From Patescibacteria group bacterium (lineage in GTDB: Bacteria; Patescibacteriota; Microgenomatia; 2-02-FULL-39-11), in assembly GCA_023379265.1 (NCBI GenBank), contig JAMCUI010000007.1:14780-78779 (forward strand): a DNA stretch of 64,000 nucleotides, written 5' to 3'. The first letter of the stretch is position 1, and the number at the start of each line of letters is the position of its first letter. Position numbers and translations under genes: made by a program. The notes under the pieces are model-generated. The model made no database searches. It was not told where the DNA came from and saw only the letters and a list, made by a program, of their open reading frames with translations. Shown here piece by piece: positions 33,628-64,000 of the stretch.

Positions 33628-33734
33628 TCTCATACGCTAATAAACACCTCATCAACTGTTCTCACGAAATAGGAAATCTAGTAAATAATATTAGTCTTTA
33701 ACTTTCCCCTCACTCTTTACACACCCTATAATGT

Positions 33735-46335: not shown

Positions 46336-49300
46336 TTGCTTGACTTTCATCTGAAGCTGCTTTACGCTGAAATTATGGTTCATCTAGGCGAAAATCTACC
46401 AACACCGGCCGACGCAATTATCCGAGCAAAAACGACTTACGATATGGTAAGAAAACGTCTTGGTGGAACTGTTAATACAACATTAACGCCAATTGAAATA
46501 ATCCGGAATTATAACGCAAATATTACACAAGGCCAACCAACATTTAATGAAAATCATCCTGAAAATATAGAAGCTGTCCGAAATGCACAACGGTATCAGC
46601 GTGATATAAACATGATGGGTTTACAGCCCGATGATGAATCCAGCGTAGTACAGCAAAAAATTAGAGATTTGGGAACGCTGGTAGGAAGCCTGGCGACAGA
46701 ACCTGAAAACATACTTTCGCACCTCAGACAATTTCAAGAACATGGAGCAAGACTTGGGCTGACCGGATCAACAATTGAGGAAATGGCTGCAAGTGTAGAT
46801 ACGATCTTGGCATCTGATGCTCCACTTGTCGGACTAGATTTAAATCATGATTCTCTTTTGGATATTGCTACATCTGTTTATGACACCCGCCATGATGCTG
46901 AACTTTCGGGTATGGGGAATGCCTTTACCGCACCAATGGATGAAGCGCTTCATGCTGTGGACGATTTCCGGCAACATGCTGATCGGTTGGGCATTGTAAA
47001 TGCAATAGGAAGGAATCAGCGGCCTATGAATGAACTTTTGGGAGACTTGGCAGACAGGGCACAAAGAGCAGGAGCGGGGGGCGGTACAACAGTAGCTGAA
47101 CAATTTGCTGCCGTTGATAGATTTGGAACGTTTAGAACACAAGCCACAAGAAATATCCGCATGGGGAATATTGACGCTCTCACCCGACACCAGATAGAAA
47201 ACAGGTTGAGAGATTATGCAGAAAACCTGGAACTAAGTAGAGATGGCAATGTGGACGAGGTTATCGGAAGAATTGAGAATTTTCTTACTACACAGATACA
47301 AACAGCAGGGTACGACATCACACAAAACATACCAGATTTGGTACGAACCATAAGAGCAGACCAGGATATCCTTTTCCGAGACAATCAACAACAGGGGGCA
47401 AGACGTCAACAACAACAACATCGGATACAAGAAATCGTCAACCGCGCAATTGGACTACGTAATATGGTTGACGCCGCTCTAATCACTGATCGGACTAATA
47501 CTATGCCTCTTAGGGAATTGGGCAGCCATGTCATAAACGACGCACAAATTGCAGGTGGTATTAATATTCAACAAAACCAACGGCCGCGCCTGGCATATGA
47601 AATTGCCCAAGATATTAGAAACCTCAGAAATAGCGTAAGGGCTGCACATTTTGGAAACCTTGCCAATCGTAGGATGGAGGAAATGGCACGGCAACTACGA
47701 ATACAAGGTCCTGCGCTCAGAGTAAAAGACTCAGCCAACCAACCGTTAGCAGTTATCGTCAGTGCTGCTGATAAAGTAATCAAGGAGGAAATTGGGGCGG
47801 GTGTTGAAAACGCAGATGATCTTGCTAATTCATTGCGCACGATACAAACCGACGTACAAAAATTCAGAGTAGCTGCCAAAAATGCTGGAATCGATGATGC
47901 TGATAATGCCCAGACTCCTACTGAATCGATTACCATGGAATTGCAAGCACGCGCAGGAGTCGCTCAACTGGAAAATATTGACAATTTATCTCCAACTGAG
48001 ATCGCTCAAAAACTTGTCGAGTTCAATAAGAAAATAAAGACTGCAAAAGTAGAAGTTGTTGCGGGGGATTTTAGCACAACAGTTGATAACATCTATAATA
48101 CTGCGGGGTTACTCCAAATCCCGGATCATCTAGACCAAACTCCTGAGGAACTTCTCGGACAGATCACTACAATTCTTCAAAATACCAGAACAGCCGGGTT
48201 TGCCGAAGTTCAGGCCGGGCATGTTGGAGACCTTATTGATGAGATGAGACATACAACCGGAGCATTGAGACTGACACAGGATGCACCACTTACTGACATC
48301 ATCACTTCTGCCACACAATATCGCACTGATGCGCAAACAATGGGATATGACAGAAATGCAGATATTCAGACGGTTGCCGATAATGTCAGAGGATTCAGAA
48401 CTCTAATAACGAAAAATAATATTGCCGGAGCAAGTCTTACAGAACAGGTTGCTACACTTGAAACACATCGTGCCACACTTGGTCTACCAGACCATACTGC
48501 TGCCTACCAAATACTAAATACAGTGGAAACTACCAGACAGGATGCCATAAGGATTCAAACAGGTTTTGACGCATACAATCAAAACGTCGGCGAATCACTC
48601 CGAGTAGTCAATGAGTTTCGTGACCACGCGCAAGCCTCAGGAGTCGCAGACGCAAGGGGAGAACATCAGGTTGATATAACCCATCTCATGACAAATATCA
48701 ACACAGATGCCAGAGCTGCAGGAATTGACGCGACAGATACTTGGCAAAATAAATTCGACGCAATTACGGCTTTACGCCATGATGCAGAAACCATAGCCGG
48801 AATCCAAAACGTAAATAACACATCAATGGACAATATCAAAAGACAGCTTCGCGGCATTGCAGAAGCAATAGGTTTTACCTTCAACGACAGCACATCAATC
48901 AGAAATTTTCTCACAGGTATTGACCGGTTCAACAATCTGGCAGCTGGGGCAGGTTACCAAAGAGCTCCCGGCACATCTTATACAGATATCGCTTCCCAAA
49001 TAAGACAGGACGCCCAACAATATTTTAATATTAATCAAAACGACAATGGGGTTTCCCTGGAGACTAGATTGGCACGGGTGAAGACTTTGCGTGATCATGC
49101 AGAAAAAGCTAAATATACCGGGGATGTCAGGGCAGATCAATTGTCAAGCGTGGTTGCCTTTATAAACACCGAGGCACAGGCAGCTGGACTTGATAATGCG
49201 TTAACTTTGGAAGTCAAGGCGGATACTTTGGTTAAATTAAGACAAAGAGCGATAGCAAGAGGGATAACCGATGCAAATACTGCACTTATGTCCACTTTAG

Positions 49301-51210
49301 CAGTAAATATCAAAACCGCAGGTACTGCAATCGGAAAAACTGGAAGTCTTGATGAAATATTAATAGCACTTGAGGAAACAAGCAGTCAAAGCGCTAGAGC
49401 AACCAGCGCTGTAGTTCCTCCTGCCGCCGACGCTCTTAGAATACAGGCTGAAAGAGTTACTAACTTAAGGCAGTTATTATCCACAGCGCTTCCCGGCGTT
49501 GACACTACTGGTAATTTGGATCCACTAATCGTTACGCTTCGAAATGATGCTACAGCAGCCCAAATAACCATAAATAACGCCGAGCTTCCTGAAACCATTG
49601 CTCAAAGACTGATAGATTTCAGAAGAAATGCTGAAGATGCCAGAGTTTTTGGGGCCATGACCCAAAGAGATATAAATGTCGTCGTAAGTCAAATCAGACA
49701 AGATGCCACAGTCCTTAATGTCGCAAACGCAAATGCTGACACACCGGCTAATCTTACTGCAGTGATCCACGGAATAATTCAAAGAGCCAGAGCTGCCGGC
49801 TTTCCGGATATTACACCGACAGCTGATTCGGCCAGAAACTTCAGAAATACTTTGACAGCTGCTGGCAACATACTTCACGCTGCTGCCAATGCGACACCGG
49901 ATGAGATCATAAATCTGGCCCGTACATACAGAGATAACGCCTTGGCAATCGGTATTGCCACGGCAAACACTGACATGCTTGAAGGTGATACCGGAGTAGT
50001 CAGAAGAGTTGACAATTTCGTGACTCTTGCTAATAATTACGGCTTTGCCGGTGCCAGATATGCCGATATAGAACCACAGATAAATACCATCAATCGTGCA
50101 TCACTAGGCCTCACCGCTGCAGCCACACGGGAAACAGTACTCAATGCAGTTGTTGAGAGAAAAACCCTAACAGGAAATATCGGAATGGCCAATGCCAGGG
50201 GAGCTGATATTGCCAACGTCATAAATGCTATTGACCAGTTTTGGACCAACGTGCAACACACCAACATTCCCGAGTTTACTCAAGCACACGCAGCAAGAAA
50301 TCTTGAACAACTACGACCCCTGCTTCGCACTCAAGCGGATATTGTAAACGCCTCTCCTACCGCAACACCCAGAGAAATGATTGTGACTATCGGAAATTTT
50401 AGAACAGACGGCGGGTTGATAGCGGTACCCAACGCCAATAACTGCCCTCTTGCCACAATAAGAACTGCTATAGATTCCTTTATAGGTGAAGCCGAAAAAG
50501 TTGGAGCGCCTAGAATAAATCCTGCCACTGGAGCAATAAATGATGTACAAACAATTGTGAATGACGTGAGGACAATTGCTCAAAATCTGGGAGTAGCAAA
50601 TGCCATGGCAGATTCAATACCAACAATTCTTCCACAAATTTTATTCTTTCAGGAAAGAGTCCGTCAAGAAACATCTCTTATCCATGATGCCGGACCCGGT
50701 AGGGCACGAATTGATATTGCCAGAGTAGATTGGTTAAACACTCAAACCAATGACGCAGCGGCTCAAATCATGCTACTACATAATATAGCTATATTGACTG
50801 GAACAGATATTCGTCGCAACGGCCACAATGCAAGACCTGACAATGGAGGAATCATCGCGGTTCAGCGAAACAGAATCGTTGCTACAAGAGCAGGAGCCAA
50901 CCCAGCGGTTACTGCTGATTTAGATATAGAAGATCAAAATATGAGAGAGGTGCAAGCCTATTTGGCTGGTTTCAATCGAATGAATATATCAAATCTTCTT
51001 GGGCTTATTACAACACGCCAGATTATGACTGACCCCACCGTACCAGCAGGTCTTCGTCAGGCATTTAAGACTATACCAAGCGAGGTATGGACACGACTTC
51101 CTCAGGCCGGACCTCTTCGTGGAATGAACCCAAATCGTTTATACACAATCAAAGTTGCCAGAATACTTGCTGGATTGCCGGTAGAACAGATAAATGGAGC
51201 AATTATTTAG
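46336..51210 (+). CDS. giant (about 1610-1624 aa) Ala/Arg/Gln/Thr/Asn-rich protein built from ~35 degenerate ~45-aa repeats; function unknown
   Basis: The long ORF starts at TTG 46336 or ATG 46374. It has no TM and no signal peptide. A recurring motif (F/L/I)R-x-(D/H/N)A-x-x-x-G-(I/L/F/Y)-x-x-A appears about every 40-50 residues. Examples are FRQHADRLGI, FRDHAQASGVADA, LRQRAIARGITDA and YRDNALAIGIATA. G+C is markedly higher than the flanks. Confidence 0.55.
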   Translation: MLDFHLKLLYAEIMVHLGENLPTPADAIIRAKTTYDMVRKRLGGTVNTTLTPIEIIRNYNANITQGQPTFNENHPENIEAVRNAQRYQRDINMMGLQPDDESSVVQQKIRDLGTLVGSLATEPENILSHLRQFQEHGARLGLTGSTIEEMAASVDTILASDAPLVGLDLNHDSLLDIATSVYDTRHDAELSGMGNAFTAPMDEALHAVDDFRQHADRLGIVNAIGRNQRPMNELLGDLADRAQRAGAGGGTTVAEQFAAVDRFGTFRTQATRNIRMGNIDALTRHQIENRLRDYAENLELSRDGNVDEVIGRIENFLTTQIQTAGYDITQNIPDLVRTIRADQDILFRDNQQQGARRQQQQHRIQEIVNRAIGLRNMVDAALITDRTNTMPLRELGSHVINDAQIAGGINIQQNQRPRLAYEIAQDIRNLRNSVRAAHFGNLANRRMEEMARQLRIQGPALRVKDSANQPLAVIVSAADKVIKEEIGAGVENADDLANSLRTIQTDVQKFRVAAKNAGIDDADNAQTPTESITMELQARAGVAQLENIDNLSPTEIAQKLVEFNKKIKTAKVEVVAGDFSTTVDNIYNTAGLLQIPDHLDQTPEELLGQITTILQNTRTAGFAEVQAGHVGDLIDEMRHTTGALRLTQDAPLTDIITSATQYRTDAQTMGYDRNADIQTVADNVRGFRTLITKNNIAGASLTEQVATLETHRATLGLPDHTAAYQILNTVETTRQDAIRIQTGFDAYNQNVGESLRVVNEFRDHAQASGVADARGEHQVDITHLMTNINTDARAAGIDATDTWQNKFDAITALRHDAETIAGIQNVNNTSMDNIKRQLRGIAEAIGFTFNDSTSIRNFLTGIDRFNNLAAGAGYQRAPGTSYTDIASQIRQDAQQYFNINQNDNGVSLETRLARVKTLRDHAEKAKYTGDVRADQLSSVVAFINTEAQAAGLDNALTLEVKADTLVKLRQRAIARGITDANTALMSTLAVNIKTAGTAIGKTGSLDEILIALEETSSQSARATSAVVPPAADALRIQAERVTNLRQLLSTALPGVDTTGNLDPLIVTLRNDATAAQITINNAELPETIAQRLIDFRRNAEDARVFGAMTQRDINVVVSQIRQDATVLNVANANADTPANLTAVIHGIIQRARAAGFPDITPTADSARNFRNTLTAAGNILHAAANATPDEIINLARTYRDNALAIGIATANTDMLEGDTGVVRRVDNFVTLANNYGFAGARYADIEPQINTINRASLGLTAAATRETVLNAVVERKTLTGNIGMANARGADIANVINAIDQFWTNVQHTNIPEFTQAHAARNLEQLRPLLRTQADIVNASPTATPREMIVTIGNFRTDGGLIAVPNANNCPLATIRTAIDSFIGEAEKVGAPRINPATGAINDVQTIVNDVRTIAQNLGVANAMADSIPTILPQILFFQERVRQETSLIHDAGPGRARIDIARVDWLNTQTNDAAAQIMLLHNIAILTGTDIRRNGHNARPDNGGIIAVQRNRIVATRAGANPAVTADLDIEDQNMREVQAYLAGFNRMNISNLLGLITTRQIMTDPTVPAGLRQAFKTIPSEVWTRLPQAGPLRGMNPNRLYTIKVARILAGLPVEQINGAII

Positions 51211-51592
51211 TAGAAGAAGAACCTGGTAAAGCCTTTCCATTCACTTCAACTTTCGAAGAAATCATTTGTTTGAATTCATCTCTTAACTGCGTAATCGTCT
51301 CGCTCTCTTGTTGTTCACGCAAATCACGCATAAATTTTTGATATACCTGATCTTCTATTTTCCTATATAAACTCTTATCCATTGATCTTTTTCCTTCTTG
51401 TACATCCAGAAGCGCTCTTTCAAATTCATATTGGATGTTGGCCTTTAGATAGTCATAGTATGCTGACCATAAGATTTTCTCTAGCATCAGTTTCTGGTCG
51501 GGAGTATATGACCCGATTTTAGCAAGAGTATCCTGCCTGACTTTTTCATCAATCGGCAGGAATTTAAGAAGCTGCTGCGTCGTTACAACCAT
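51203..51592 (-). CDS. hypothetical protein
   Basis: 129-aa charged helical ORF, convergent with the giant gene. No motifs recognised. Confidence 0.35.
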   Translation of the reverse strand: MVVTTQQLLKFLPIDEKVRQDTLAKIGSYTPDQKLMLEKILWSAYYDYLKANIQYEFERALLDVQEGKRSMDKSLYRKIEDQVYQKFMRDLREQQESETITQLRDEFKQMISSKVEVNGKALPGSSSTK

Positions 51593-51607
51593 ATTTACCT
51601 TAAAAAT

Positions 51608-53761
51608 TTAGACAGGATAATTTTCAATTCTATTCTCTACCACTTTCATCATATCAAATATTGCCAATTGTAAATCTACACGAGATAAGCTTCCCCCTTC
51701 ATAAAGAGTTCTTAAGGCTGAAAGCGCTTGTTCCAACCTGTCGCCAGGATTTAAGGTCAACTCAAACCGCTCAACTAGAATATCTGCCACTGCTTCCGGA
51801 GGTAAAAGCTCAGAAGCCCATCTGGCATGGTCAACCGCCTGAACGCCACCCGGAACTCTTCCAAAAACAAGTCTCTGTATCATGCTATAACCGTGAAGAA
51901 GCGTCACGTTGGTTCTTGTAGCATCACCCGGTGGCGCTACAATCGTCTCTTGAGATATATCAGTCAAACTTTGCATGGAAAACTCCTGTTGATTATCAGG
52001 ATCATTAAGTTCTCCATGAATCTGTCCGTATCTAAGAAGTGCAGCCTTTGCAGTGTCGATTATGTGTATAACATCTTCTGATGCCGATATAGGCTTTTCC
52101 GCATCTTTAACCACTTCACTTAGTCTCAAAATTTCAGTTTCTAAATTGGTTATCTCACCCGTCAACTGAGTGACCTCCTGATCTTTTACCTGCCGTTCTC
52201 GCTCTTTTGTCGGAATACTGGCTAAATCTCTTTTCACTTCAGTTAATCTCGTTTGTTTTGCAGCCAATCCTCTTTCAGTATTTCGCCTATCAACTTCAGC
52301 CAGCCTTGAATTAAATTCCGCTTCATCTTCCTGCCACTCGGTTTTATATTGCCGAGCCAGTCCTATATTATTATGAACCATTGCATCATTATAAAGTCTT
52401 CTATTTTCACGACGAGCCTCCTCTTTTTCCCTTTCGATAGTACTTCTTGCCTCGGTCATTTCTCTTATTTCCCCCTCCAAATTTCCCTGTTCCTGCTGTA
52501 AACTTGCCTGGTTGTTTCTTAAACCCTGCAACTCTCCCTCAAGTCTTGTAACTGCTTCCCTTGCAGTTTGCAATTGAGATCTTTTTTCTGTTCTTCTGGC
52601 CTTTGCATCCTCTAACTCCTCACCCCGCATCTGTTTTTGAGCTTCTGTCATTCTCGGTTTTGCTGCTGCAGCCCTTTTAGAATCAAGTTGCTCGATTACA
52701 GGTCTAAATACCTTTCCAGGCTCAGTATTAAGTAATTCCAACGCCCTCTCGGTAAAATGCACTACAGTCTCTCTCTGAGCCTTATCCCATATTTCCACCC
52801 TCCGCTGTTGAGATAAAGGACCAACAAACATACCTCCCTCTCTTGCTCTTCTCATCCTATAACCATTCCACCGACTTGCAACGTTATATCCCAAAGCATC
52901 TGGATTTACCTGTGCATTTCCCGCTGCAGTTAAGGCAAAGGAATCCCAACTGGTAAAATTACCCATCATATTTAGCTTTACCCCCAATAGATGATAAAGA
53001 TCGGCGTGCGCCCGACCTGTCTCCATTAATTCAGTCACCACCCTATCATCTGTTGCCAAAGAATTATCTCTCATATATTCCAAATAGGCTCTCTCCTCAG
53101 CTGGTAAAAAATTCCAGCTGATTGCTCCCGCACCTCTGTTTAATACGAGCCTGCCTTGAGCATCTATTAATCCAAAAGCATCAACAAGCTGATTTATCGC
53201 TTGCCTCACACCCTCACTTAATCTTTGTATTTGACCGGCATACGCATCCAAAACCACTTCTCTATCGGCAGGCCGGGGGACATCCCCTCTTGCACCTGTC
53301 ATCGCTTCCTGTCTAACCATAAGTTTGCGGAACAATTCAGTTTCAGACATGACGTGAATAGCGATTATTCCTGCCTCTGATTTTACTAGTTCGCTAAAAT
53401 CACCGTTCGCCCTTTTATAGAGTTCAAGAAATGTCTTCTGATCTGCTAACAAAACTCCTCCCGCATCCTGATATTGTTCAAGTTGAGCTCCAATATTCTC
53501 TCCCATCTTTTGGTATTCCTTCATTACTCTTGGATCAGCAATTATTTCATGGAGAGCTGGCCTACCAAATTCTCTTCCTTTCCATTTTGTTACATTTGGT
53601 TGAGATGGAGTACGTTCGTGAGGCGCATTCCTTTGCTGAGGCTCAGGAGTATCCACATGAGGGCGAGGCGTGTTTGCCGCCGGAGCCATAGCAGCAGGTT
53701 CTATAGTTGTATGAGCCGGTGGCATCGCTTGCGGTAATGTATCTGGAGTCGCTTGTGCCAT
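51608..53761 (-). CDS. coiled-coil protein with Pro/Ala-rich N-terminus (717 aa)
   Basis: The N-terminal ~60 aa are P/A/T-rich. The central ~250 aa have strong heptad, coiled-coil character (RLEGELQGLRNNQASLQQEQGNLEGEIREMTEARSTIEREKEEARREN...). There is no TM. G+C is elevated. Confidence 0.45.
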   Translation of the reverse strand: MAQATPDTLPQAMPPAHTTIEPAAMAPAANTPRPHVDTPEPQQRNAPHERTPSQPNVTKWKGREFGRPALHEIIADPRVMKEYQKMGENIGAQLEQYQDAGGVLLADQKTFLELYKRANGDFSELVKSEAGIIAIHVMSETELFRKLMVRQEAMTGARGDVPRPADREVVLDAYAGQIQRLSEGVRQAINQLVDAFGLIDAQGRLVLNRGAGAISWNFLPAEERAYLEYMRDNSLATDDRVVTELMETGRAHADLYHLLGVKLNMMGNFTSWDSFALTAAGNAQVNPDALGYNVASRWNGYRMRRAREGGMFVGPLSQQRRVEIWDKAQRETVVHFTERALELLNTEPGKVFRPVIEQLDSKRAAAAKPRMTEAQKQMRGEELEDAKARRTEKRSQLQTAREAVTRLEGELQGLRNNQASLQQEQGNLEGEIREMTEARSTIEREKEEARRENRRLYNDAMVHNNIGLARQYKTEWQEDEAEFNSRLAEVDRRNTERGLAAKQTRLTEVKRDLASIPTKERERQVKDQEVTQLTGEITNLETEILRLSEVVKDAEKPISASEDVIHIIDTAKAALLRYGQIHGELNDPDNQQEFSMQSLTDISQETIVAPPGDATRTNVTLLHGYSMIQRLVFGRVPGGVQAVDHARWASELLPPEAVADILVERFELTLNPGDRLEQALSALRTLYEGGSLSRVDLQLAIFDMMKVVENRIENYPV

Positions 53762-53834
53762 AATTTCAGCCTAGCAAATGAGGTAGGGAAATGCAACTGC
53801 CGGCAAAATATCTTTCGAACAAATACTGGAAAAT

Positions 53835-55781
53835 GTGTCAGCCGCTATGTATGATAGAAGCATGGTACTAGCTGAAGCACCGGTCACACCACCAGTTGTA
53901 GAAGCACCACACGCTCCCGCGCCTTATGTGGAACCTAAACTCCCCGGTGAAGCACCTGAACAAGCGGCTCCCGGAGAGGATGCACGACTCCATAAAGATT
54001 TCAAACAACTTATTCAGATTGACGGGACAGCCAACGGTAACAGGGCATTGGTTGATAGGGGATACGCCAAAAAAGAGACAGTTACCGCGGAATTTAAGGC
54101 AGCGGGGAAAAATGTAGGGGATGCTGCAGTACAGCAGGAAATTGATACTGAAGTGCAAAGAAGAGAAACGGAACAGCAGGATGCTAGAAAACCCAAAAAA
54201 GAAGACGCGTCAGAGGAAATGATTGCGGCTGAGGCAAAAAAGATGGCGGCAGAGGACGGACCATGGAAAGGAAAAGACGCGAATGACCCTGCATTGAGGG
54301 AAGAAGCTGCCCTTAGAGCGGCACAAAAAAGGATTGACGGATTGACAGGCGCTTATGACATTCTTTATACCGCACAGGACGCTGTAGCCTCCTACAATGC
54401 TGCTGTAGAAAGCGCCATCCAAGGGGAGGGCAACCGGCTTATCCAAGAGGAAATTGCAAAAAGGAATGCCCAGGCTCATCTTAAAACTCCTCCCGATCCT
54501 GATATTACTGATTTACCTGATGGGGAAAAAGAACAAATTAGAGCTGGAATTAATAGAAGTGAAGTCGGGAAAAGAGTCAAAAGAGAAGATTATTATGATC
54601 CGGACAATCGCAAATATCACAAAGTTGGCGCAGACGGAAAACCGACTGCAGACGTAGTCTCCTACGACGACGCGTACGAAGCCATGTATGAAGAACTCAT
54701 CAGAGTCTCTGGCTTACCACCTGCTGCTGACGGTACACCCAATCCTGATGCTGAAAGAGCCCAACAACTGTTAAAGTCACTTCACTACAATAGGGATGAA
54801 AATGCCTTCCAGGTATATACTCCGGAGCAAAAAATGCTCAAAGAGCGTGAAGCAGGACAGGAACTCCTTATCCAGACAGCCGAAAATGTCTTTAACTCCA
54901 TTTGCGACCAGGGAGTACCGCCAGCAAAAGAAGCGTCTTCGCTTGTTTCCTCACTCGGACTCTTTCTTGACCGCTTAAAAACAACCAACCCCCCGCTTAA
55001 TCCTTTACAACGCAACATGGTTCTGGCAGCTATAAATGAGAGACTGATGGGTCTTGCCAATGCCCAAACAGCAGTCATTGTCTCCGCAGAAGACGCCCGA
55101 ATGCTTGATATGCTGAAGAAAAAACCAGGCGCTATAAGACAGCTAAACGCTTTCAAAAACAACCAGGCGCTTAAAGGCATGATGAGTGACATACACAGTT
55201 CTATAAAACAAGGTTATGTGGATATCATAATGGGCACCACCCAGCACGACGTAAACATGGAACATTTCTTCCAGTCAGTTAGCCTTGCTGCGCTTTGCCG
55301 GGAACAGGGATTGACTAAACCGTCGGAAGTAAAACGGATACTGGTAAAATTCAAGATAGCCCTGACAGCTGGAGATCAACAATTGATAACTTTCCTTGCA
55401 GGGGAAGACACAGGGGGAATACGCACAAAACTTCCGGGGGGTAAAAAAGAAAATACCAACCTTGACCAAATGCTCGATCTTATAGGCATGAACGCTAAAG
55501 ATATAGGCGATTTCCCCAAATATATAGCTGCCAACGCTAAACGGATTGTGGAAAACGCGGCCATGCCTGGAGAAACCAGCCAGGCAAACTGGGCAGAAGT
55601 TGCCAAAAACAGGGAAGCCGCGCTTCGCGGTCATGCAGTGATAGCAGAAAAGTTCGTCAAAGATCCAAAGTTTAAGCTTGATGCAGGAAAAATTCTTATG
55701 CTTATTATGGGCGGTGGAACAGTCATGGGATTAGTACAACCAATACTCGAAACAAACCCCGAAGAGAAACAACAAACATGA
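53835..55781 (+). CDS. Pro/Ala-rich protein with C-terminal tail-anchor TM (648 aa)
   Basis: The N-terminus is PVTPPVVEAPHAPAPYVEPKLPGEAPEQAAPGEDA. There is a single C-terminal hydrophobic segment ILMLIMGGGTVMGLVQPIL followed by an acidic tail. It is divergent from the 717-aa gene across a 73-bp spacer. Confidence 0.45.
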   Translation: MSAAMYDRSMVLAEAPVTPPVVEAPHAPAPYVEPKLPGEAPEQAAPGEDARLHKDFKQLIQIDGTANGNRALVDRGYAKKETVTAEFKAAGKNVGDAAVQQEIDTEVQRRETEQQDARKPKKEDASEEMIAAEAKKMAAEDGPWKGKDANDPALREEAALRAAQKRIDGLTGAYDILYTAQDAVASYNAAVESAIQGEGNRLIQEEIAKRNAQAHLKTPPDPDITDLPDGEKEQIRAGINRSEVGKRVKREDYYDPDNRKYHKVGADGKPTADVVSYDDAYEAMYEELIRVSGLPPAADGTPNPDAERAQQLLKSLHYNRDENAFQVYTPEQKMLKEREAGQELLIQTAENVFNSICDQGVPPAKEASSLVSSLGLFLDRLKTTNPPLNPLQRNMVLAAINERLMGLANAQTAVIVSAEDARMLDMLKKKPGAIRQLNAFKNNQALKGMMSDIHSSIKQGYVDIIMGTTQHDVNMEHFFQSVSLAALCREQGLTKPSEVKRILVKFKIALTAGDQQLITFLAGEDTGGIRTKLPGGKKENTNLDQMLDLIGMNAKDIGDFPKYIAANAKRIVENAAMPGETSQANWAEVAKNREAALRGHAVIAEKFVKDPKFKLDAGKILMLIMGGGTVMGLVQPILETNPEEKQQT

Positions 55782-55796
55782 AGTCTGAACTAAATT

Positions 55797-56507
55797 ATGA
55801 TCATCCAGATTTTGCTATTCCTCATATTACTTATCCTTCTCTATTTTATTAGCAAAAAAATCTCTTCTGCAATTTATACTATATTTCTTCTAATATCGAA
55901 AAACAAACATTTTACAAACATTCTATTGGCGCTTATATTCTTACCCGGAACCATTCTTCATGAGATGTCCCATTTCCTTGTCGCAACGGTACTTAGAGTA
56001 CCCACAGGAAATCTGTCGGTTCTTCCAGAGCAGGAAAAAGAGGGGGAAATAAAGGCTGGGAAATTGGAACTTGGCAAAGCTGATCCTTTCCGATATTCCT
56101 TAATAGGCCTTGCGCCAATTTTGACCGGCCTAACTGTTATCTTTATTTTAGGCAAAAACTATGGTTTAGAGCTTAATTTTTTGCTTAACTTCAAAATAAC
56201 AGTCATACAACTTGCAGTATTTTTCGTTTCTATAATTATCTCAGTCACTATGTTTTCCAGCAGAAAAGACGCAGAAAGCTTGATCATTTCAGGTCCGATT
56301 ATTTTACTAATATCCATATCTTTATACCTGATAGGAGTAAGGGTCATCCTCAATCAAAATCTGGCAGAAGCAATTACGGCCTTTTTTACAGACATCAATA
56401 AGTATCTATTGTTCATTCTTATACTAGACTGGCTTCTACTGATAATATTGCAACTAATGGTAAATCTTTTGAGTAAAATATTGGGAAGAAAATTTATTGA
56501 AAGATAG
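55797..56507 (+). CDS. polytopic membrane protein with intramembrane HExxH (HEMSH) motif, putative zinc metalloprotease
   Basis: 236 aa with about 6 TM helices. HEMSHFLVA lies at the end of TM2. Composition is host-like and AT-rich, starting 16 bp after the GC-rich block. Confidence 0.4.
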   Translation: MIIQILLFLILLILLYFISKKISSAIYTIFLLISKNKHFTNILLALIFLPGTILHEMSHFLVATVLRVPTGNLSVLPEQEKEGEIKAGKLELGKADPFRYSLIGLAPILTGLTVIFILGKNYGLELNFLLNFKITVIQLAVFFVSIIISVTMFSSRKDAESLIISGPIILLISISLYLIGVRVILNQNLAEAITAFFTDINKYLLFILILDWLLLIILQLMVNLLSKILGRKFIER

Positions 56508-56511
56508 AAAT

Positions 56512-59500
56512 TTAAGTTGTGGAGGCTGATGTTTTAGAATCCGCAGCACCTTCTTTTACCCCCGTATCTTCCGTAGGTAAAACTGGCCCTGTATCTGCGG
56601 CGGGAGACTGACTTTGATCTAAAGAGGTATTTTGTTGAAAATAATCACTCAAGGGATTCTGACTTTGAGCTTCTTGTACCGGTGAATTATTCTCCTGTGG
56701 AGACACGCTAACGGTTTTATCCTTACCCTCCTCACTTGATACCTCCTGCATGCTGAAATCCTTTACTTGGGTTTCCGGATTTCCTGTATTTGGTTTATCT
56801 TTTTGACCTGCCGCTTCAACTGACGTCCCAGATGGTTTCTGTTCCATTTCCTTTACTAATTCACTGGCGCATTTGGGACAGGAAAGGGGAGAAGCATCAT
56901 CTGTTTTCCTCTGCCAGATATTGGAACAGTTAAGACACTGGTATGATTTGGAGTCTTCTTGAGGTTTGTTTCCCCCAGGCACTTCTTCTACCTGTGGATT
57001 TTTTGTCTTATCATCTACCACAGCTGGCTTTTTAAGCTCCATCTTCTTTACGTTAAAAGCTAGTTGCTGCCCGTCATAATCCACCATTACCGTATCACCC
57101 GCAGCTAATTCTCTTTTTATAAGAAGAGAGGAAATTTCATTCTCTATAAGACGTTGCATTGTCCTGCGCAAAGGCCTGGCGCCAAATACGGGATCATAAC
57201 CCACCTCGGCTAGATACGTCTTTGCATCATGACTGATATCTATAGCAATATCCTGTTCCTCAAGCAGTTTAGAAAGAGCTTTCACCTGAAGTCCTACTAT
57301 TTCCACCATATGTTTTCTGGTCAACGGTCTAAAAACTACCACCTCGTCAAAACGATTAAGAAGTTCCGGACGGAAAAACTTGCGCAACTCTTCCATCAGG
57401 CGATCCGCCAATCGAGCAAACATCTCATCTTCTCCACTATCGGATTTTTCCTCGTCTTTATTCTCCAAACCCAAAGGAATAATATCTTCAGGCTTTTTAG
57501 TCTGTGCCTCTACTGTACTAAACAATTTCACCATCTTTCCAGAAATCCATTCGGTTGAATCCGTATTTGCTCTCTGGAAATAACGTCCGACAGCAACGAT
57601 TAATTCCTCACCAGTAGGCTTAAAAACGTGTTGATCCCATTTTTCAATAGGAAACTCAATCTTTTCCTCGTCTTTAGGATTAATCTCAACTCCTGTTTTA
57701 TCCTCTGACTGTTGTGCATTATCAATTCTTTTCTCACTTGTATTTACCTCAACCTGATTGGTGCCGCCATTATCTGTTTTATTGTTTACGGTTTTTAATT
57801 CGTCTGTCTTTATATCTCCACCTGAAATATCCGAACCGTCTGTTTTTTCTTTCCCTTCCGGTGTTTTTCCTATAGAAACAACGTCTGCGCCCTTCAACGT
57901 ACATCCCGTAAAATACTCAGCTAGCGTACCCGTAGTCCAATCTGTTGTCTGCAAATTCTCCCTTAGCCAAAACCTGTCTCCGAAAGAAACCACTTCAGTA
58001 TTGGTAGGGGATACAGCATGTGTATCAATCCTCGCAGTAGGCAACTGTTCTTGAGGCCGGTCAGGAAGAGCATTCACCACTACACCTCCTTTTACATAAT
58101 CCAAAAGAGATTTTTGTGTCCATTCTTTGGTCGTTGTTGAGGTACGCTGCCACAACCTATCGTCAAAAGTTATAATTTCCGAGCCGTCAGGAGCGATAAG
58201 ATGAGTATCTATACCGTCCTGAGGGAAATCTTTTTCTCCCTCTGTTACCGTGGAACCGGCAAAATAGTCTAAGAGTGAAGAAACTGTCCAGAACTTATCG
58301 CTTCCTTCCTTCTCCCACAGTTTTCCCTTAAAACTCACAAGTTCCCGTCCAGTTGGCGAAATAGTATAAGTACTAAAAATTTCCTTTTCTTTAGTTTCAT
58401 GACTTTCTTCATTATTTTTTGACTTATCACTCCAACCCAACATTTCATCCTGGATGATACCGCTACCTAGATTGGAAGTACAAATAACAATGGTATTCTT
58501 GAAAGAAATGGTATGTCCTTTATTATCAGTCAACCTACCATCATCTAGAAGCTGTATAAGAATATTAAAAACATCTGGATGGGCTTTTTCTATTTCATCA
58601 AATAAAACTACTGAATATGGTCTTCTTCTCACCGCTTCAGTTAATTGCCCTCCCTCTTCATAACCAACATATCCAGGAGGCGCACCAATTAATTTTGCGA
58701 CCTCGTGCTTTTCCATATACTCGGTCATGTCAAGCCGGACGATCATCTCCTCGCTTCCAAAAAGTATCTCAGCTAAAGCTTTCGCCAACTCTGTTTTCCC
58801 TACTCCGGTTGGTCCCATAAAGATAAAACTACCAATCGGCCTCTTGTTTGATTTAAGTCCTGCCCGGCCGCGTCTGACTGCTTCGGCTACCGCCAATACC
58901 GCATCTTCCTGATCTATAAGCCTCTTATGGATAATATCCTCCAGACTCATCAACTTTGTCGATTCGCTTTCAGTCAACCTGCTTATTGGAATATTTGTCC
59001 AGCGGGAAACAATATCGGCAATTATATCCGGCCCGACAATATTGGTCGTAGTCGATTTCTTTACCTGATATTGCTCTTTAAGTTCTGTTTGGGCCTGCTC
59101 CAATTCCTGAATGTCTTTTTTTATAGTCTGGAGGTGAACTTCATCTCCTAATTTTTCCGCTTCTTTTGCTTCACTATCCAACTTTTTCAATTTATCTTCG
59201 CCTTTTTTTATTTCCTCCGGTAAGGAAATTGCGGGCAATCTTACAGAAGCCGCAGCTTCATCAATTAGATCAACTGCTTTATCAGGCAAAAACCTGTCAC
59301 CAATATAACGCTGTGATAGTTTTACAGCTGCATCCAAAGCCTCGTCTGATATTTTTACACGGTGAAAAGCTTCGTATTTATCACGAAGAGCAGAAAGCAT
59401 TTCAACGGCCACATCAGCTGTAGGCTCCAAAACATATACTGGCTGAAATCTTCTTTCAAGTGCTGGATCCTTCTCCACATATTTTCTGTATTCAGTCACT

Positions 59501-60843
59501 GTTGTCGTCCCTATCACCTGCAATTCACCACGGGCAAGGGATGGTTTAAGAATATTTGACGCGTCCATGGTTCCTTCACCACCAGAACCCGCTCCCACCA
59601 TATTATGCAACTCATCAATAAAGAGAATAATTGCTCCACTTGCGGCCTTGACTTCTTTAATAAGGTTTTTCAACCTCTCTTCAAACTCCCCCCTATGCTT
59701 TGCTCCGGCGATAAGAGACATCAAGTCAAGCAATAACACTCTTTTATGAAGAAGGGTTTCCGGAACATCTCCATGAGCAATGCGAAGAGCCAAACCCTCT
59801 ACAATTGCAGTCTTACCCACGCCCGCATCTCCGATTAACACAGGATTATTTTTAGTTCTTCGTGAGAGTATGTGAATGATACGTTCAATCTCAGTACTTC
59901 GGCCAACCACCGGATCAAGCTGTCCCTGGGCTGCTTTAGCGGTTAAGTCTTCAGTGTATTCCTCAAGGGCAGAACTGGTCTTTTTCTCCTCTTCTTTCTC
60001 TAATTCTTTCTTTCCTGTTATCTTTTTATTCAACACCTCAGGCTTCAAATTGTATTTAACTAAAGTTCTTGCAGCTAGGCCTTCCCCTTCATGCGAAAGA
60101 GCCAATAATATATGCTCTGGAGAAACAAACTCGTACCCTAAAGATCTTGCAGCAGACAACGACAACTCAAGCACCCGCTTCACTCGGGGGGAAAACTGCG
60201 GTTGCCCGGAAAAATTGCCTTGTTTGAAACTTTTCTCCAATTCCGTTTGTATCTCTGATGGAGTAGCCTTACATTCGGAAATAATCTGGTAAATACTGCT
60301 ATCTCGAAGAAGCCCCCAAAGCACATGTTCTGTATCTATGTACTGGATTTTCAACTCTTTTGCTTTTCCCACAGCACTCATTAGAGCAGTATTCGCTCTT
60401 TGGGTAAGTCGAGAAAGAACGTCCATTCCAGCTCTCTTTTTCATATCTATATTCGTCTGACCATCACTTGAAGTGTCTTTTTTTTGTGGGGTATTTTTAT
60501 CTTTTTGCTGTTGTTCTGTCTTTCCTTTTGATTGGTCTGGTTTTTGAGAAACACTATTCTGCTGCTGTCCGACAACAGGCGGCTTGCCTATTCCAGAAAA
60601 AGCTTTACCACCAGGAGGATTACCAATTCCCGAATAACTTGTGCCTGATGGGGAATTACCTATCCCTGAATAAGAAGTGTTTGTATCTTGCACGGTATCC
60701 GAAGCCGCTTGGGTTGAGTTTTTTGTAATGGTAACTACCCGTTGGTCTACATCTTGACCACCCGTAGCATCATTTTGCTGACTCTTGCCACCTGAAGCGT
60801 CTTTTTTCAAGTATCTGCTGAAATTAAAAAGTCCTGCGGGCAT
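56512..60843 (-). CDS. ClpB/ClpC-like two-ring AAA+ chaperone with GS-rich N-terminal leader, large D2 insertion of four novel repeats, and C-terminal zinc ribbon
   Basis: 1443 aa. Clp-N repeats. D1 Walker [16 protein letters not shown] short M-domain coiled coil. D2 Walker [15 protein letters not shown] and TSNLGS. The '[15 protein letters not shown]' sensor motif (standard spacing from TSNLGS ~45 aa) is then delayed by about 340 aa, a stretch carrying four copies of H-x-x-x-P-x-G-x-E-(I/V)-x-x-F-...-W-...-W-T-...-L-x-x-Y-F. There is a CxxC...CxxC zinc ribbon near the C-terminus. The true start may be the internal Met near 60444. Confidence 0.75.
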
Positions 60844-61140: not shown

Positions 61141-62634
61141 ATGGAACAACATCCAGTCCCAAGAAATATTAGCGGTTTCCAGTTCCACCTTATCGGAGAT
61201 ATGACGCTGCGCCAATTTGGTTATTTAGCTGTAGGAATTGGAGGAGCTTATTTCATTTTTAAGCTTGCGCCGTTCCCGTCTATAATCAGTTTTCCGCTTG
61301 CGGGAATAGTAGGATTGGCAGGTTTTGCTTTTGCCTTTTTACCGATTCAGGAAAGACCTTTGGATAAATGGTTAGTAGCGTTTATAAAAAGCGTCACTTC
61401 TCCCACGCAATATTTATGGATAAAAAACAACCCTCCACCTGATGTACTAACAAGACCAATTGTAATTGGACAACGGGTGATATCACAATCAACACCCCAT
61501 ATAGTTGCGCATAGAGAAGCGCAACAAAAATTAGCTTCATATCTAGCATCGCTTCCTCAATCACCCCATGAAACCTTAAATCTAAGGGAGAAAAAATATA
61601 TCAACTCCACGCTGTCACTTTTTCAAACATCGGGTGTATATATAGGAAACAACCCGACAACATATGTCGCCTCAAAACCGTCTTACGCACAACATGTCGA
61701 GCCCTTAAGATATACCCCTCTTTCCAAACAATCCACACCCATTAACGCTTCTTTTACCAGCCATGTAGTAAAATCGCCACAAACCGATGCAGCGACTCAA
61801 CCTAAATCTGATAAAGTTGCTGCGGGTTTTAAGCAAATAACTATAAGCCAACCGTCAAACATAAAGTCAAATACACAAATAACCTCTACACCTACTATTC
61901 ACGACGCGCCAACACAGCAAGCAACTGAAAAAAATGCTACGCAAAAAAATGTCCAGCAGCAGACTAAAAAACCTGCTATTTTGCCTTCAAACCTAAAACC
62001 AATAACACAATCAATAAACCCACCCACTTCGCAAAAATCAATCGCCCAAGCTGATAAGGTTAAAGATCAAAATATTCCAGAAACTCAAAACGAAACAAAT
62101 AGCCTCCAAAAACAACTAACAGACTTGGCCGCGGAAAAAAAGAGGCTTGAAGACGAATTGAACAAACTTAAAAATGAAAGAGTGAATTTGGAAAAACCAG
62201 AGATTGTAAAACCTGTTGCCATGGAGGAAAAACCCTCAAAAGAACCAACGATAAAAACTATACCAGCAAAATCTGTTGCTTTAGAAATGGGCATTACAAA
62301 TATAAACCAAAACCCCAATATTATTGCGGGTGTTTTTAAGGATCCTCAACATAAAATTTTACCAAACATTATTCTCACAATAAAAGATAAAAACAATAAC
62401 CCCTTAAGAGCAATGAAAACTAACAAACTTGGTCAATTTGCTACTGCCACACCTTTACCAAATGGGGTATATCTACTAGAAGCCGAAGATCCGCTGAAAA
62501 GGTATGTCTTTGATATTGCCGAAATCACGCTTGCCGGTAAAGTATTTTCTCCAGTAGAAATAATAGCCAAAGGTGAAAAAGAACTTATGAGGGAAAAACT
62601 TAACAAAGCGGTTTTTGGCAATGCTACAATATAG
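61141..62634 (+). CDS. membrane protein with N-terminal double-TM domain and Thr/Pro/Gln-rich extracellular region plus coiled coil; possible T4SS-associated (VirB3-like N-terminus)
   Basis: 497 aa. Two N-terminal TMs (FGYLAVGIGGAYFIFKL / SFPLAGIVGLAGFAFAFLPI) followed by ERPLDKWL, a low-complexity T/P/Q/K-rich region and the coiled coil LQKQLTDLAAEKKRLEDELNKLKNE. It sits directly upstream of a VirB4-like gene. Confidence 0.35.
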   Translation: MEQHPVPRNISGFQFHLIGDMTLRQFGYLAVGIGGAYFIFKLAPFPSIISFPLAGIVGLAGFAFAFLPIQERPLDKWLVAFIKSVTSPTQYLWIKNNPPPDVLTRPIVIGQRVISQSTPHIVAHREAQQKLASYLASLPQSPHETLNLREKKYINSTLSLFQTSGVYIGNNPTTYVASKPSYAQHVEPLRYTPLSKQSTPINASFTSHVVKSPQTDAATQPKSDKVAAGFKQITISQPSNIKSNTQITSTPTIHDAPTQQATEKNATQKNVQQQTKKPAILPSNLKPITQSINPPTSQKSIAQADKVKDQNIPETQNETNSLQKQLTDLAAEKKRLEDELNKLKNERVNLEKPEIVKPVAMEEKPSKEPTIKTIPAKSVALEMGITNINQNPNIIAGVFKDPQHKILPNIILTIKDKNNNPLRAMKTNKLGQFATATPLPNGVYLLEAEDPLKRYVFDIAEITLAGKVFSPVEIIAKGEKELMREKLNKAVFGNATI

Positions 62635-62668
62635 TAGTAAGTGAATTTAATAAGGCTTAATTTATTAT

Positions 62669-63349
62669 ATGTCACAACCGACATCCGCCCCCATAAGGGC
62701 AACAACTCAAGAATTTTTAGATATTGAAGATATTAAGGAGGATATTATTATTCTTCGGGATGGTTCAGCCGCCCTGGTTATAGAAACAACTGCGGTAAAT
62801 TTTGGCCTTTTATCTGAAGAGGAACAAGACGCTCTAATTTATGCTTACGCTTCACTAATTAACTCCCTTTCATTTTCTCTCCAAGTAGCCATCTTATCCA
62901 AACGGATGGACATTTCCTCATATATCGAAACTATCACCCAGGAAGAAGAAAAACAGAATAATCCTGTTGTGAGAAGCCGTTTACACACCTATAAGGAATT
63001 TATTATGTCTATTGTAAAAGAAAATCGGGTTTTGGAAAAGAAGTTTTATCTAGCAATTCCTTTCTCAGCGTTAGAATTGGGGGTAAAAGGAGCTGTTGGT
63101 GGAAATAAAAAAAGATTGCCATTTTCCATAGATTATATAGTTTCAAGAGCTAAAACATCGCTTTTACCCAAACGAGACCATCTTTTAAGACAGTTAGGAA
63201 GAATCGGATTAAAAGGCAGACAACTACCAACGCAGGAATTGGTAGAAATTTTTTATAACATTTACAATCCCACATTGACCGGTGAAAAGCTCGGTGAAAT
63301 CGCGGGATACACCAAACCTTTAGTCGAAGGGTTAGGAAAGAACCTATGA
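62669..63349 (+). CDS. VirB4/TraC-family conjugative ATPase, N-terminal segment encoded as a separate ORF
   Basis: 226 aa. QEFLDIEDIKEDIIILRDGSAALVIETTAVNFGLLSEEEQDALIYAYASLINSLSFSLQVAILSKRMDISSYIE follows the N-terminal pattern of Gram-positive-type VirB4 proteins (QEFLPI..I.DGII..KDG....IEV.PINF.L.SE.E). Its stop overlaps the next ATG (ATGA). Confidence 0.45.
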   Translation: MSQPTSAPIRATTQEFLDIEDIKEDIIILRDGSAALVIETTAVNFGLLSEEEQDALIYAYASLINSLSFSLQVAILSKRMDISSYIETITQEEEKQNNPVVRSRLHTYKEFIMSIVKENRVLEKKFYLAIPFSALELGVKGAVGGNKKRLPFSIDYIVSRAKTSLLPKRDHLLRQLGRIGLKGRQLPTQELVEIFYNIYNPTLTGEKLGEIAGYTKPLVEGLGKNL

Positions 63350-64000
63350 CATTCTCGTTATTTGCTAAAAAAAATAATGTGGCTAATCAAAATCAAATCC
63401 CAATTCCTCAACAGACTACACAAACAACTGGATTTGCTAAAACTGCAGTAGCTACCCAAAATATAAAAAACATAAGCGCAGAAAGCAAAGTCGCCGCCTC
63501 CGCTTATATTCCATCAACAAAACTTGCAACACAAACTCAAAAATTAGCCCAAGGCATGGTAACCGTGAAAGACATCATTGCTCCTTCGCTTGTTGAAGTT
63601 GATTTCGACCATGTACGAGTAAATAACAGTTACTACAGAACTCTTTTTGTAGCAGGTTATCCGAGATTTGTATCAGCAAACTGGCTGCACCCACTTCTCT
63701 CTTTTGACCATTCTCTTTTTATATCCATGTATATTTACCCCACTGAGTCAAAAGTGATTTTGGAAGACCTCAAAAGAAAAATTGCGGAAATGGAAGCGAC
63801 TATTCAAGCTGACATGAAAAGAGGAAAAGTTGTAGATCCGTCAGTCCAAGTGGCTCTTGATGACGCACTCGCTCTCCAAGCACAATTGGCAAAAGGAGCG
63901 GAAAGATTTTTCCAATTTAGTCTGTACATTACCATTCCCTCTGAATCTGTTGAGGAATTAAACCGGATATCAAAAGAGGTAGAATCAACCATTGGTTCAC
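63346..64000 (+). CDS. VirB4/TraC-family conjugative ATPase, continuation (3'-partial at window end)
   Basis: Open to the window end. DIIAPSLVEVDFDHVRVNNSYYRTLFVAGYPRFVSANWLHPLLSFDHSLFISMYIYP matches the VirB4 segment IAP..IEF..DY.KIGDKY.RTLFI..YP......GWL..L....D.SIHI.P. Confidence 0.5.
   Translation, partial: MTFSLFAKKNNVANQNQIPIPQQTTQTTGFAKTAVATQNIKNISAESKVAASAYIPSTKLATQTQKLAQGMVTVKDIIAPSLVEVDFDHVRVNNSYYRTLFVAGYPRFVSANWLHPLLSFDHSLFISMYIYPTESKVILEDLKRKIAEMEATIQADMKRGKVVDPSVQVALDDALALQAQLAKGAERFFQFSLYITIPSESVEELNRISKEVESTIGS

Follow-up and report, generated by a model that had tools for sequence, protein, structure and literature searches.

The window analysed here is a 64,000-nucleotide stretch of a contig from a Patescibacteria group bacterium (GenBank assembly GCA_023379265.1, contig JAMCUI010000007.1). 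On its minus strand, a single, uninterrupted open reading frame (ORF; 56512..60843) starts with ATG and encodes a protein of 1443 amino acids (aa), a Clp ATPase whose second AAA+ domain (D2) carries an insertion modelled as a four-bladed, hemopexin-like beta-propeller. A preliminary description of this DNA had given the same coordinates and strand and had read the product as a ClpB/ClpC-like two-ring AAA+ unfoldase, a reading with which Pfam, NCBIfam and alignments to PDB sequences agree; the gene product is a two-ring, class-I, ClpC-like Hsp100 unfoldase of a Microgenomates-type Patescibacteria lineage. Pfam matches to Clp_N, AAA, AAA_lid_9, AAA_2 and ClpB_D2-small all lie above their cut-offs. 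Two contigs encode the identical protein; the record in NCBI assembly GCA_023487465.1, to which one of these belongs, names it 'AAA family ATPase [Patescibacteria group bacterium]'.

The core of the protein has the features of a class-I Hsp100: Clp_N, two AAA+ modules, Walker A and B motifs, sensor-1, the sensor-2 motif GARPLRR and D2-small. The Clp N-terminal repeat domain (aa 143-285; 59989..60417, minus strand, as for all features of this gene) matches PF02861 in two stretches and is collinear with Bacillus subtilis ClpC from residue 4. It is followed by the first AAA+ domain (D1; about aa 300-540, 59224..59946), assigned by motifs and alignment, with Walker A GDAGVGKT at aa 338 and Walker B ILFIDE at aa 406; by a short ClpC-type M-domain (about aa 541-600, 59044..59223), placed by alignment with the B. 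subtilis ClpC coiled coil; and by the large subdomain of D2 (aa 601-804, 58432..59043), recognized from motifs and from alignment with 1qvr, in which aa 677 begins the Walker A motif GPTGVGKT, the pore loop reads GAPPGYVGY, and Walker [11 protein letters not shown] and the sensor-1 TSN (aa 789) are present. Beyond the insertion, aa 1142-1262 (57058..57420) comprise the return helix, [16 protein letters not shown]2 small subdomain and the sensor-2 GARPLRR; ClpB_D2-small covers aa 1174-1254 and ClpB residues 725-848 align here.

Among the known systems closest to this protein are ClpC and ClpB. Residues 4-567 of B. subtilis ClpC are collinear with the N-domain, D1 and M-domain, with no large gaps and a score of 549 bits, while ClpB alignments end at query residues 451-457, at the start of the M-domain; the M-domain originally called canonical is thus present, but is of the short ClpC type and not the long, four-helix ClpB type. 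Because the long ClpB M-domain is absent, coupling to DnaK through M-domain motif 2 is unlikely. ClpC (B. subtilis 3j3s, Staphylococcus aureus 6em8/6em9) shares the two-ring architecture and short M-domain and is highly similar over D2 as well (389 bits), but our protein differs in having no conserved VGF/AGF tripeptide, a 337-aa insert at that loop, a D1 tyrosine replaced by histidine, and added sequence at both ends (a leader at the N-terminus, a zinc ribbon and tail at the C-terminus). By a narrow margin, D2 scores highest with ClpB (T. thermophilus 1qvr, E. coli; 407 bits), and our protein shares with ClpB the 'GW' turn and the absence of a ClpP loop. The top NCBIfam models, ClpB, ClpK, ClpG, ClpA and ClpV, all score below their curated cut-offs (TIGR03346, 964.7 against 1232.1; NF008118, 792 against 1417). 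ClpK and ClpG scores are high (786 and 773 bits), yet far below cut-offs of 1900; together with ClpL, these stand-alone disaggregases are likewise class-I Hsp100s with a short M-domain and extra domains, and they act without ClpP. Their extra domains are N- or C-terminal, not inside D2.

Not all of the motifs are intact, as had first been thought. The pore-loop tyrosine of D1 is replaced by histidine ([10 protein letters not shown]; aa 383, 59695-59697), so that an aromatic tyrosine does not line the pore in both rings. The homologue set consists of the 120 best full-length matches, with 48-65% identity. In the 109 relatives in which the motif was found, the D1 residue is histidine in 104, glutamine in three, alanine in two and tyrosine in none; the D2 pore-loop tyrosine is kept in all 120.

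The insertion itself separates two halves of D2 that normally lie close together: from TSNLGS (sensor-1; aa 789) to FRPELLNRF (aa 1157) the distance is 368 aa rather than about 45, a widened spacing that the preliminary description had noted. By searching aa 600-1290 against PDB sequences with phmmer, we found that aa 804 corresponds to residue 723 and aa 1142 to residue 725 of 1qvr, which makes the insertion aa 805-1141 (337 aa; 57421..58431), at a one-residue turn of T. thermophilus ClpB; the approximately 340 aa and the span 57424-58437 given earlier are almost identical. In S. aureus ClpC (6em9), the adjacent residues 679 and 680 align with aa 811 and aa 1140, respectively, and the break falls right after RFAGFGGSSDG, whose AGF we take to be the ClpP-docking loop; this AGF loop pairs with the residues immediately preceding the insert. 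The BAP chimera (5ofo), which reportedly carries a ClpP-docking helix-loop-helix of about 27 residues, can be aligned up to the same junction as 1qvr and 6em9. BAP is a ClpB in which this D2 segment was exchanged for the part of ClpA that binds ClpP, and ClpP stacks beneath its AAA-2 ring, so that the site both accepts a foreign element and faces a partner under AAA-2 (PMC4023160). Our protein differs from BAP in carrying a whole, natural four-bladed propeller and no ClpP motif. Because the ClpB, ClpC and BAP alignments all break at this point, the insert, on the evidence of alignment, occupies the tip of the D2 helix-loop-helix, which is the position of the peptidase-docking loop of ClpC and ClpA on the D2 exit face. 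The original placement at the base of the D2 ring is thereby supported, the base in question being the one that faces ClpP.

Nothing was found in favour of reading the insert as a chimera of the assembly, as the product of a frameshift error or as an intein, and we regard these readings as so improbable that they can be set aside. The ORF is single, base composition is continuous across the insert with no break, and the insert is not a chimera because the identical protein lies on two contigs and homologues share its architecture, with more than 100 homologous clusters in NCBI, JGI, ENA and Logan. An intein is contradicted by junctions without intein-type residues and by an insert that folds, in the model, as a propeller.

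Within the insert, the four repeats first described lie at aa 821-863, 877-919, 939-981 and 1067-1109. Smith-Waterman scores between repeat pairs range from 49 to 109, where shuffled sequences average about 21 (z = 6.8-19.1), and for no pair did any of 500 shuffles reach the observed score. An AlphaFold2 model built from an alignment of 96 sequences (A1) has predicted local distance difference test (pLDDT) values of 95-98 over the four repeats and a predicted TM-score (pTM) of 0.72; every repeat is modelled as four strands and a short helix. Foldseek searches of the PDB with this model place hemopexin-like (PEX) domains on top, with the PEX domain of MMP-2 (1rtg) matching all four blades at E = 5e-7 and a target-normalized TM-score of 0.70. 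The predicted structure has the closed ring of four blades, each a four-stranded meander with a short helix, that is characteristic of PEX domains; as modelled, the insert is one closed, complete four-bladed hemopexin-like beta-propeller. In a model of D2 with the insert (pLDDT 83.6), the propeller sits between long helices at aa 794-812 and 1127-1156. The junctions between the propeller and D2 reach only pLDDT 50-80 in this monomer model, which suggests a flexible stalk.

Blade 1 (aa 821-866, 58246..58383) is supported by the repeat statistics and by a model of four strands and a short helix at pLDDT 95-97. Blade 2 (aa 873-919, 58087..58227) contains the R-x-S...W of 'WxRTSTTxKEW', in which R85, S87 and W93 (numbering of the propeller alignment, A3) are invariant. 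Blades 2 and 3 are joined by the linker [18 protein letters not shown] (aa 920-937, 58033..58086; pLDDT 96-98), which has V107, N109, A110, D113, Q118 and P120 invariant in A3. Blades 3 (aa 938-985, 57889..58032) and 4 (aa 1063-1112, 57508..57657) are defined by the repeats, the AlphaFold2 model and A3; between them lies a disordered loop rich in Lys, Glu, Asp, Gly and Thr (aa 986-1062, 57658..57888; pLDDT below 50), whose length in homologues ranges from 0 to about 150 aa. Although identity over the domain is only 33-55%, A3 has 23 invariant columns and an invariant inter-blade linker, V-x-N-A-x-x-D-x-x-x-x-Q-x-P, and the blades are therefore under purifying selection. A3 contains no conserved cysteine, and so none of the disulfide between blades I and IV that is typical of the PEX domains of MMPs and hemopexin; the return of both propeller ends to D2 may supply closure instead.

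Any relationship of these blades to hemopexin repeats is distant. The PEX domains of MMP-2, MMP-9, MMP-12 and MMP-14, of hemopexin and vitronectin, and of plant PA2-type albumins/lectins (3s18) have the same four blades of four strands and a short helix, and the blade motif 'ID-x-x...G...I..GD.(Y/F)W.R' is in register with 'IDAA...G..FFKG..YW'; PEX domains are also non-catalytic binding modules, in likeness to the role we propose below. In contrast, identity to PEX domains is only 8-17%, the third position of the innermost strand is His or Tyr and not Ala, the blade I-IV disulfide is missing, and the propeller is cytoplasmic and lies inside an AAA+ domain whereas PEX domains are appended to extracellular enzymes. 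Direct searches miss the connection: the insert alone matches nothing in Pfam at E <= 10, an HMMER profile of the propeller has no matches among PDB sequences, no Pfam model covers the insert, and Pfam searches with 26 individual propellers return noise, with Hemopexin in two of the 26 at E = 1.4. The preliminary description had not recognized the repeat and had allowed for a trivial match to a known domain; the match to hemopexin is not trivial, because Pfam and HMMER miss the insert directly, and the repeat is a divergent hemopexin-like blade.

A chain of intermediate proteins may bridge this gap. An exhaustive search of 1.84 billion representative sequences with the Clp-propeller profile yielded 45 proteins at E <= 1e-3. 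The strong matches come from fragments of Clp proteins; Walker A is missing from the weaker matches (E = 7e-18 to 6e-4), which align over the blades only. These non-AAA proteins look secreted (six full sequences, mostly with a hydrophobic, signal-peptide-like N-terminus), and modules fused to their blades include DUF2961, GH39/GH42-like, dockerin and peptidase C39 domains. The set P0138-P0163 amounts to an unannotated, secreted-looking family of hemopexin-like blades, most of which Pfam Hemopexin misses. P0139, the closest non-Clp blade protein, is annotated as Ca. Beckwithbacteria / Patescibacteria. The secreted blades read 'vP...IDaAYfD..G.yTvIKGDrYWYR......W.tnTL.sAy', and hhalign aligns them with the Clp blades at 99.1% probability, a value that is partly circular because the secreted blades were picked with the Clp-blade hidden Markov model (HMM). 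On the other side of the chain, P0150 matches the Clp-propeller profile at E = 5e-9 and PF00045 at 24.0 bits (gathering score 21.3), five further non-Clp proteins match PF00045 weakly at blade positions, and the best PDB match of a secreted-blade profile is the hemopexin domain of MMP-14, in register, at E = 0.02. Given the fold and this chain, a distant hemopexin-like origin of the blades is the best reading, and secreted proteins of this same radiation are the probable source of the propeller.

How widespread is the insert? A word-indexed search gave a single fragment (P0001) and an impression of extreme rarity, which we discarded when a full-length search and an HMM scan showed the insert to be clade-wide. 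Searching for homologues with the same insert, as had been proposed at the outset, we found that 112 of the 120 closest relatives have three or more detected blades where this protein has them in D2, with either four or 7-8 blades in all. The named sources of the 120 are Gottesmanbacteria, Roizmanbacteria, Microgenomates, 'Patescibacteria group' and one 'Parcubacteria'; two metagenome-assembled genome records among our loci (L009, L012) are labelled 'uncultured Gammaproteobacteria', and their closest matches are Patescibacteria sequences. Members with 7-8 blades (P0054, P0057, P0060, P0061, P0074, P0100, P0105 and P0111; for example L008:8001-12833) have inserts of 540-580 aa, a tandem double propeller reminiscent of the two-domain architecture of hemopexin itself. 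Seven members (P0058, P0062, P0068, P0069, P0070, P0082 and P0084) have no propeller and instead 59-123 low-complexity residues at the site. P0068 (L005:8001-10922) shares the same dnaA-dnaN-VirB4-TraC-PrgI / Clp / membrane-protein neighbourhood and is therefore an orthologue that lost the propeller secondarily. PF20030 was considered as the family of the insert and rejected; in some homologues it matches only as a MoxR-type AAA domain, outside the insert. Full-text literature searches returned no description of an Hsp100 bearing a propeller or a hemopexin domain. As far as these searches reach, an Hsp100 with a propeller at this site is undescribed; both kinds of component are already known.

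This distribution bears on whether the insert does anything specific. Patescibacteria often have large insertions in their conserved proteins, the propeller has disappeared from several close lineages, the blade 3-4 loop, leader and tail are of low complexity and variable length, and the site tolerates grafts, as BAP demonstrates; all this would fit a tolerated, lineage-specific decoration with no specific role. Such a decoration would hardly be expected to show the purifying selection seen in the 23 invariant columns and invariant linker at 33-55% identity, to be kept in 112 of 120 homologues, or to be duplicated to 7-8 blades in one subclade, and we consider this explanation very unlikely.

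The site of insertion raises the question of ClpP. The tripeptide [LIVM]G[FLM] is present at its canonical place in D2 in only four of 106 members, so the docking loop of ClpC is not a feature of this family. An 'LGW' after sensor-1 was considered as a variant ClpP tripeptide and rejected: it is not conserved in the family and, in the 1qvr alignment, pairs with 'KGW' of ClpB. Neither the window nor neighbourhoods totalling 740 kb, the whole extent of a search with E. coli ClpP as query, gave a match to ClpP, and literature searches on ClpP in Microgenomates returned nothing relevant. With no ClpP tripeptide and a propeller at the docking loop, the enzyme would not dock ClpP canonically and would act as a stand-alone unfoldase or disaggregase; like ClpB, it is probably ClpP-independent.

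Position also limits what the propeller could reach. The tethers are only about 10-25 residues long, and the entrance of D1, which in Hsp100s would be roughly 90-100 Å or about the height of a hexamer away from the propeller, would be out of their range. The earlier suggestion that the insert is an exosite recruiting substrates or adaptors, here to feed the entry pore, has some appeal: the D1 pore loop is degenerate and the leader long and disordered, so that substrate choice may need extra modules, and in MMPs and vitronectin the hemopexin-like domains serve as hubs that bind substrates and partners (for example, PMC6739113). The substrate and adaptor sites known in Hsp100s, on the other hand, are the N-domain and M-domain, and the exit-side position of the insert and its short tethers disfavour recruitment to the entry pore. 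We think an exosite of this kind unlikely; a downstream partner docked there, or an anchor, would suit the position better.

A candidate partner is encoded next door. At 55797..56507 on the plus strand, adjoining the 3' end of the clp gene, lies a gene for a 236-aa polytopic membrane protein, a candidate M50/site-2-protease-like metalloprotease identified by LPGT..HExxH, MFSSxxD and synteny. Both motifs are invariant in all 14 members of an alignment of this family (A4). Pfam M50/M50B are its commonest weak matches, in nine of 14 members and always below gathering scores (PF02163 in seven of 14, best E = 0.021; PF13398 in two of 14, best E = 0.005), and a profile search of the family against the PDB gave no match. 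We collected loci by scanning genomes and metagenomes with a single blade-1 peptide pattern, without de-replication; in 40 of 54 loci, or 40 of the 49 with enough downstream DNA, the membrane-protein gene lies next to the 3' end of clp. The pair is convergent in most loci. In one lineage (L053-L058) both genes run in the same direction, with the membrane-protein gene 168 bp downstream, and they do so too in L007, L020 and L021, which have otherwise lost synteny.

These observations suggest that the propellers could dock the unfoldase onto the M50-like metalloprotease, which would replace ClpP as peptidase or clipping partner. The outcome would be a two-component AAA+ protease or dislocase anchored in the membrane, whose logic would resemble that of FtsH or of RHBDL4-p97. 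Speaking for this are the adjacency in 40 of 49 assessable loci and its survival through changes of orientation, the invariant HExxH and MFSSxxD with M50/M50B as commonest weak matches, and a propeller exactly at the peptidase-docking loop of ClpC, ClpA and ClpX in a family with no conserved ClpP tripeptide. Against it, the pairing persists in propeller-less P0068, and adjacency is therefore independent of the propeller; most pairs are transcribed convergently; nine loci with several kilobases of flank have no such gene; M50 membership is sub-threshold in Pfam with nothing in the PDB profile search; and the loci are a redundant set drawn from one blade-1 peptide pattern. The putative metalloprotease next to clp is the only candidate partner that the data offer, and we give this docking a rather low chance. 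The fuller proposal, that the propellers replaced ClpP-docking loops to create a new two-component membrane AAA+ protease/dislocase, has a somewhat smaller one; to the same extent we entertain that the docked unfoldase would feed chains to, or extract them at, an intramembrane zinc protease instead of ClpP.

The ends of the protein were initially described as atypical, yet both leader and zinc ribbon are conserved features of the family. The protein begins with the motif [14 protein letters not shown] (aa 1-14, 60802..60843), which conforms to the family consensus MPGxLFNFSRYFKK, the family-wide start, which a regular expression also finds in five of the seven propeller-less orthologues. The low-complexity leader continues to aa 142 (60418..60801) and is 8-327 aa long in homologues; it had been called Gly/Ser-rich, which holds (G 13%, S 12%), but it is equally rich in Gln and Lys (11% each) and contains conserved short motifs. 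YSGIG, YSGIG and FSGIG at aa 58, 70 and 82 form YSGIG/FSGIG(x)PP repeats (about 60586-60672), and the [YFW]SG[IVLM]G motif is present in 80 of the 120 homologues. Such leader motifs could be a membrane-targeting or a self-binding peptide. At the other end, the zinc ribbon is CLNC-x15-CPKC (aa 1303-1325, 56869..56937), with a spacing of 15 rather than the 17 first reported; Zn_ribbon_8 matches it weakly (E = 3e-4, below gathering score) and CxxC...CxxC is found in 71 of 120 homologues. The remaining tail (aa 1326-1443, 56515..56868) is of low-complexity composition and has no Pfam match.

Propeller, YSGIG and zinc ribbon tend to vanish together. YSGIG is found in one of seven propeller-less against 85 of 112 propeller-bearing members, and the ribbon in none of seven against 71 of 112; Fisher tests of co-loss give raw P values of 0.002 and 0.001, which become 0.05 and 0.02 when collapsed to about four lineages. 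The propeller might bind the protein's own YSGIGxPP leader repeats, its zinc ribbon or both, giving autoinhibition or head-to-tail assemblies of hexamers, and the leader has sufficient length to reach across the hexamer. We find this distinctly unlikely: there have been very few independent losses, and 27 of the 112 propeller-bearing members are without YSGIG and 41 without the ribbon.

We favour, at about even chances, a reading in which this protein is a ClpP-independent, ClpC-like unfoldase whose exit-face propellers are binding modules for a partner or anchor other than ClpP. Six propellers per hexamer would hang from the ClpP-facing exit rim of D2 on short, flexible tethers, each presumably a non-catalytic binding module by analogy with hemopexin-fold domains elsewhere, and would couple the exit face either to a downstream partner that takes the threaded chain or to an anchor for pulling. 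Such a role would also match the closest relatives of the Clp blades, which sit in secreted-looking carbohydrate-active proteins of Patescibacteria. Several points weigh against this proposal: the hexamer geometry is derived from alignment and from a monomer model with a stalk at pLDDT 50-80; the D1 pore-loop histidine, a feature of the sequence, raises the possibility of altered threading; and the seven propeller-less orthologues are about 82% identical in the core, so that the propeller is dispensable in some lineages.

The wider surroundings offered no further partner that we retained. Type IV secretion system (T4SS)-like genes lie divergently upstream at 61141-64000 on the plus strand, encoding PrgI/VirB3-like (497 aa) and TraC-like (226 aa) proteins, with a VirB4-like ATPase beyond the window end and dnaN and dnaA further on. 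We rejected these neighbours as functional partners since the adjacency is found only in close relatives and is absent in distant members; a paper on the Patescibacteria T4SS makes no mention of a Clp protein. Beyond the membrane protein, 46336-55781 holds three large ORFs (1624, 717 and 648 aa) with no Pfam match on record, and genes of the 717-aa and 648-aa types recur in related loci. Further away, two tandem class-A penicillin-binding proteins (Transgly and Transpeptidase; 31378-36110, plus strand) comprise 749 aa and a 791-aa ORF, the second called as 785 aa in L002, and a LytR_cpsA_psr gene follows downstream at 39938-41104. In GCA_023487465.1, regions of the window are split over JAMDBJ010000001.1 and JAMDBJ010000021.1, so that the window represents a more contiguous assembly of the same organism.

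To our knowledge, all natural elements known at this D2 loop in Clp ATPases are ClpP-docking peptides. In this clade as a whole, a folded 20-kDa domain has taken the place of the loop, and its hemopexin-like fold has elsewhere been seen mostly in proteins outside the cell. If the propeller recruits a partner other than ClpP, the choice of partner at the exit face of an Hsp100 would be rewirable by domain insertion, and hemopexin-like repeats would extend to a cytoplasmic, intradomain setting in bacteria. The family would also gain an annotation of its own, its members now being labelled only 'AAA family ATPase' or 'ClpC'. In view of where the insert lies, its conservation across the clade, the degenerate pore loop of D1 and the conserved protease-like neighbour, this protein is a worthwhile experimental target, one that would open a way into the proteostasis of the ultra-small, host-dependent and biochemically almost unstudied Patescibacteria.

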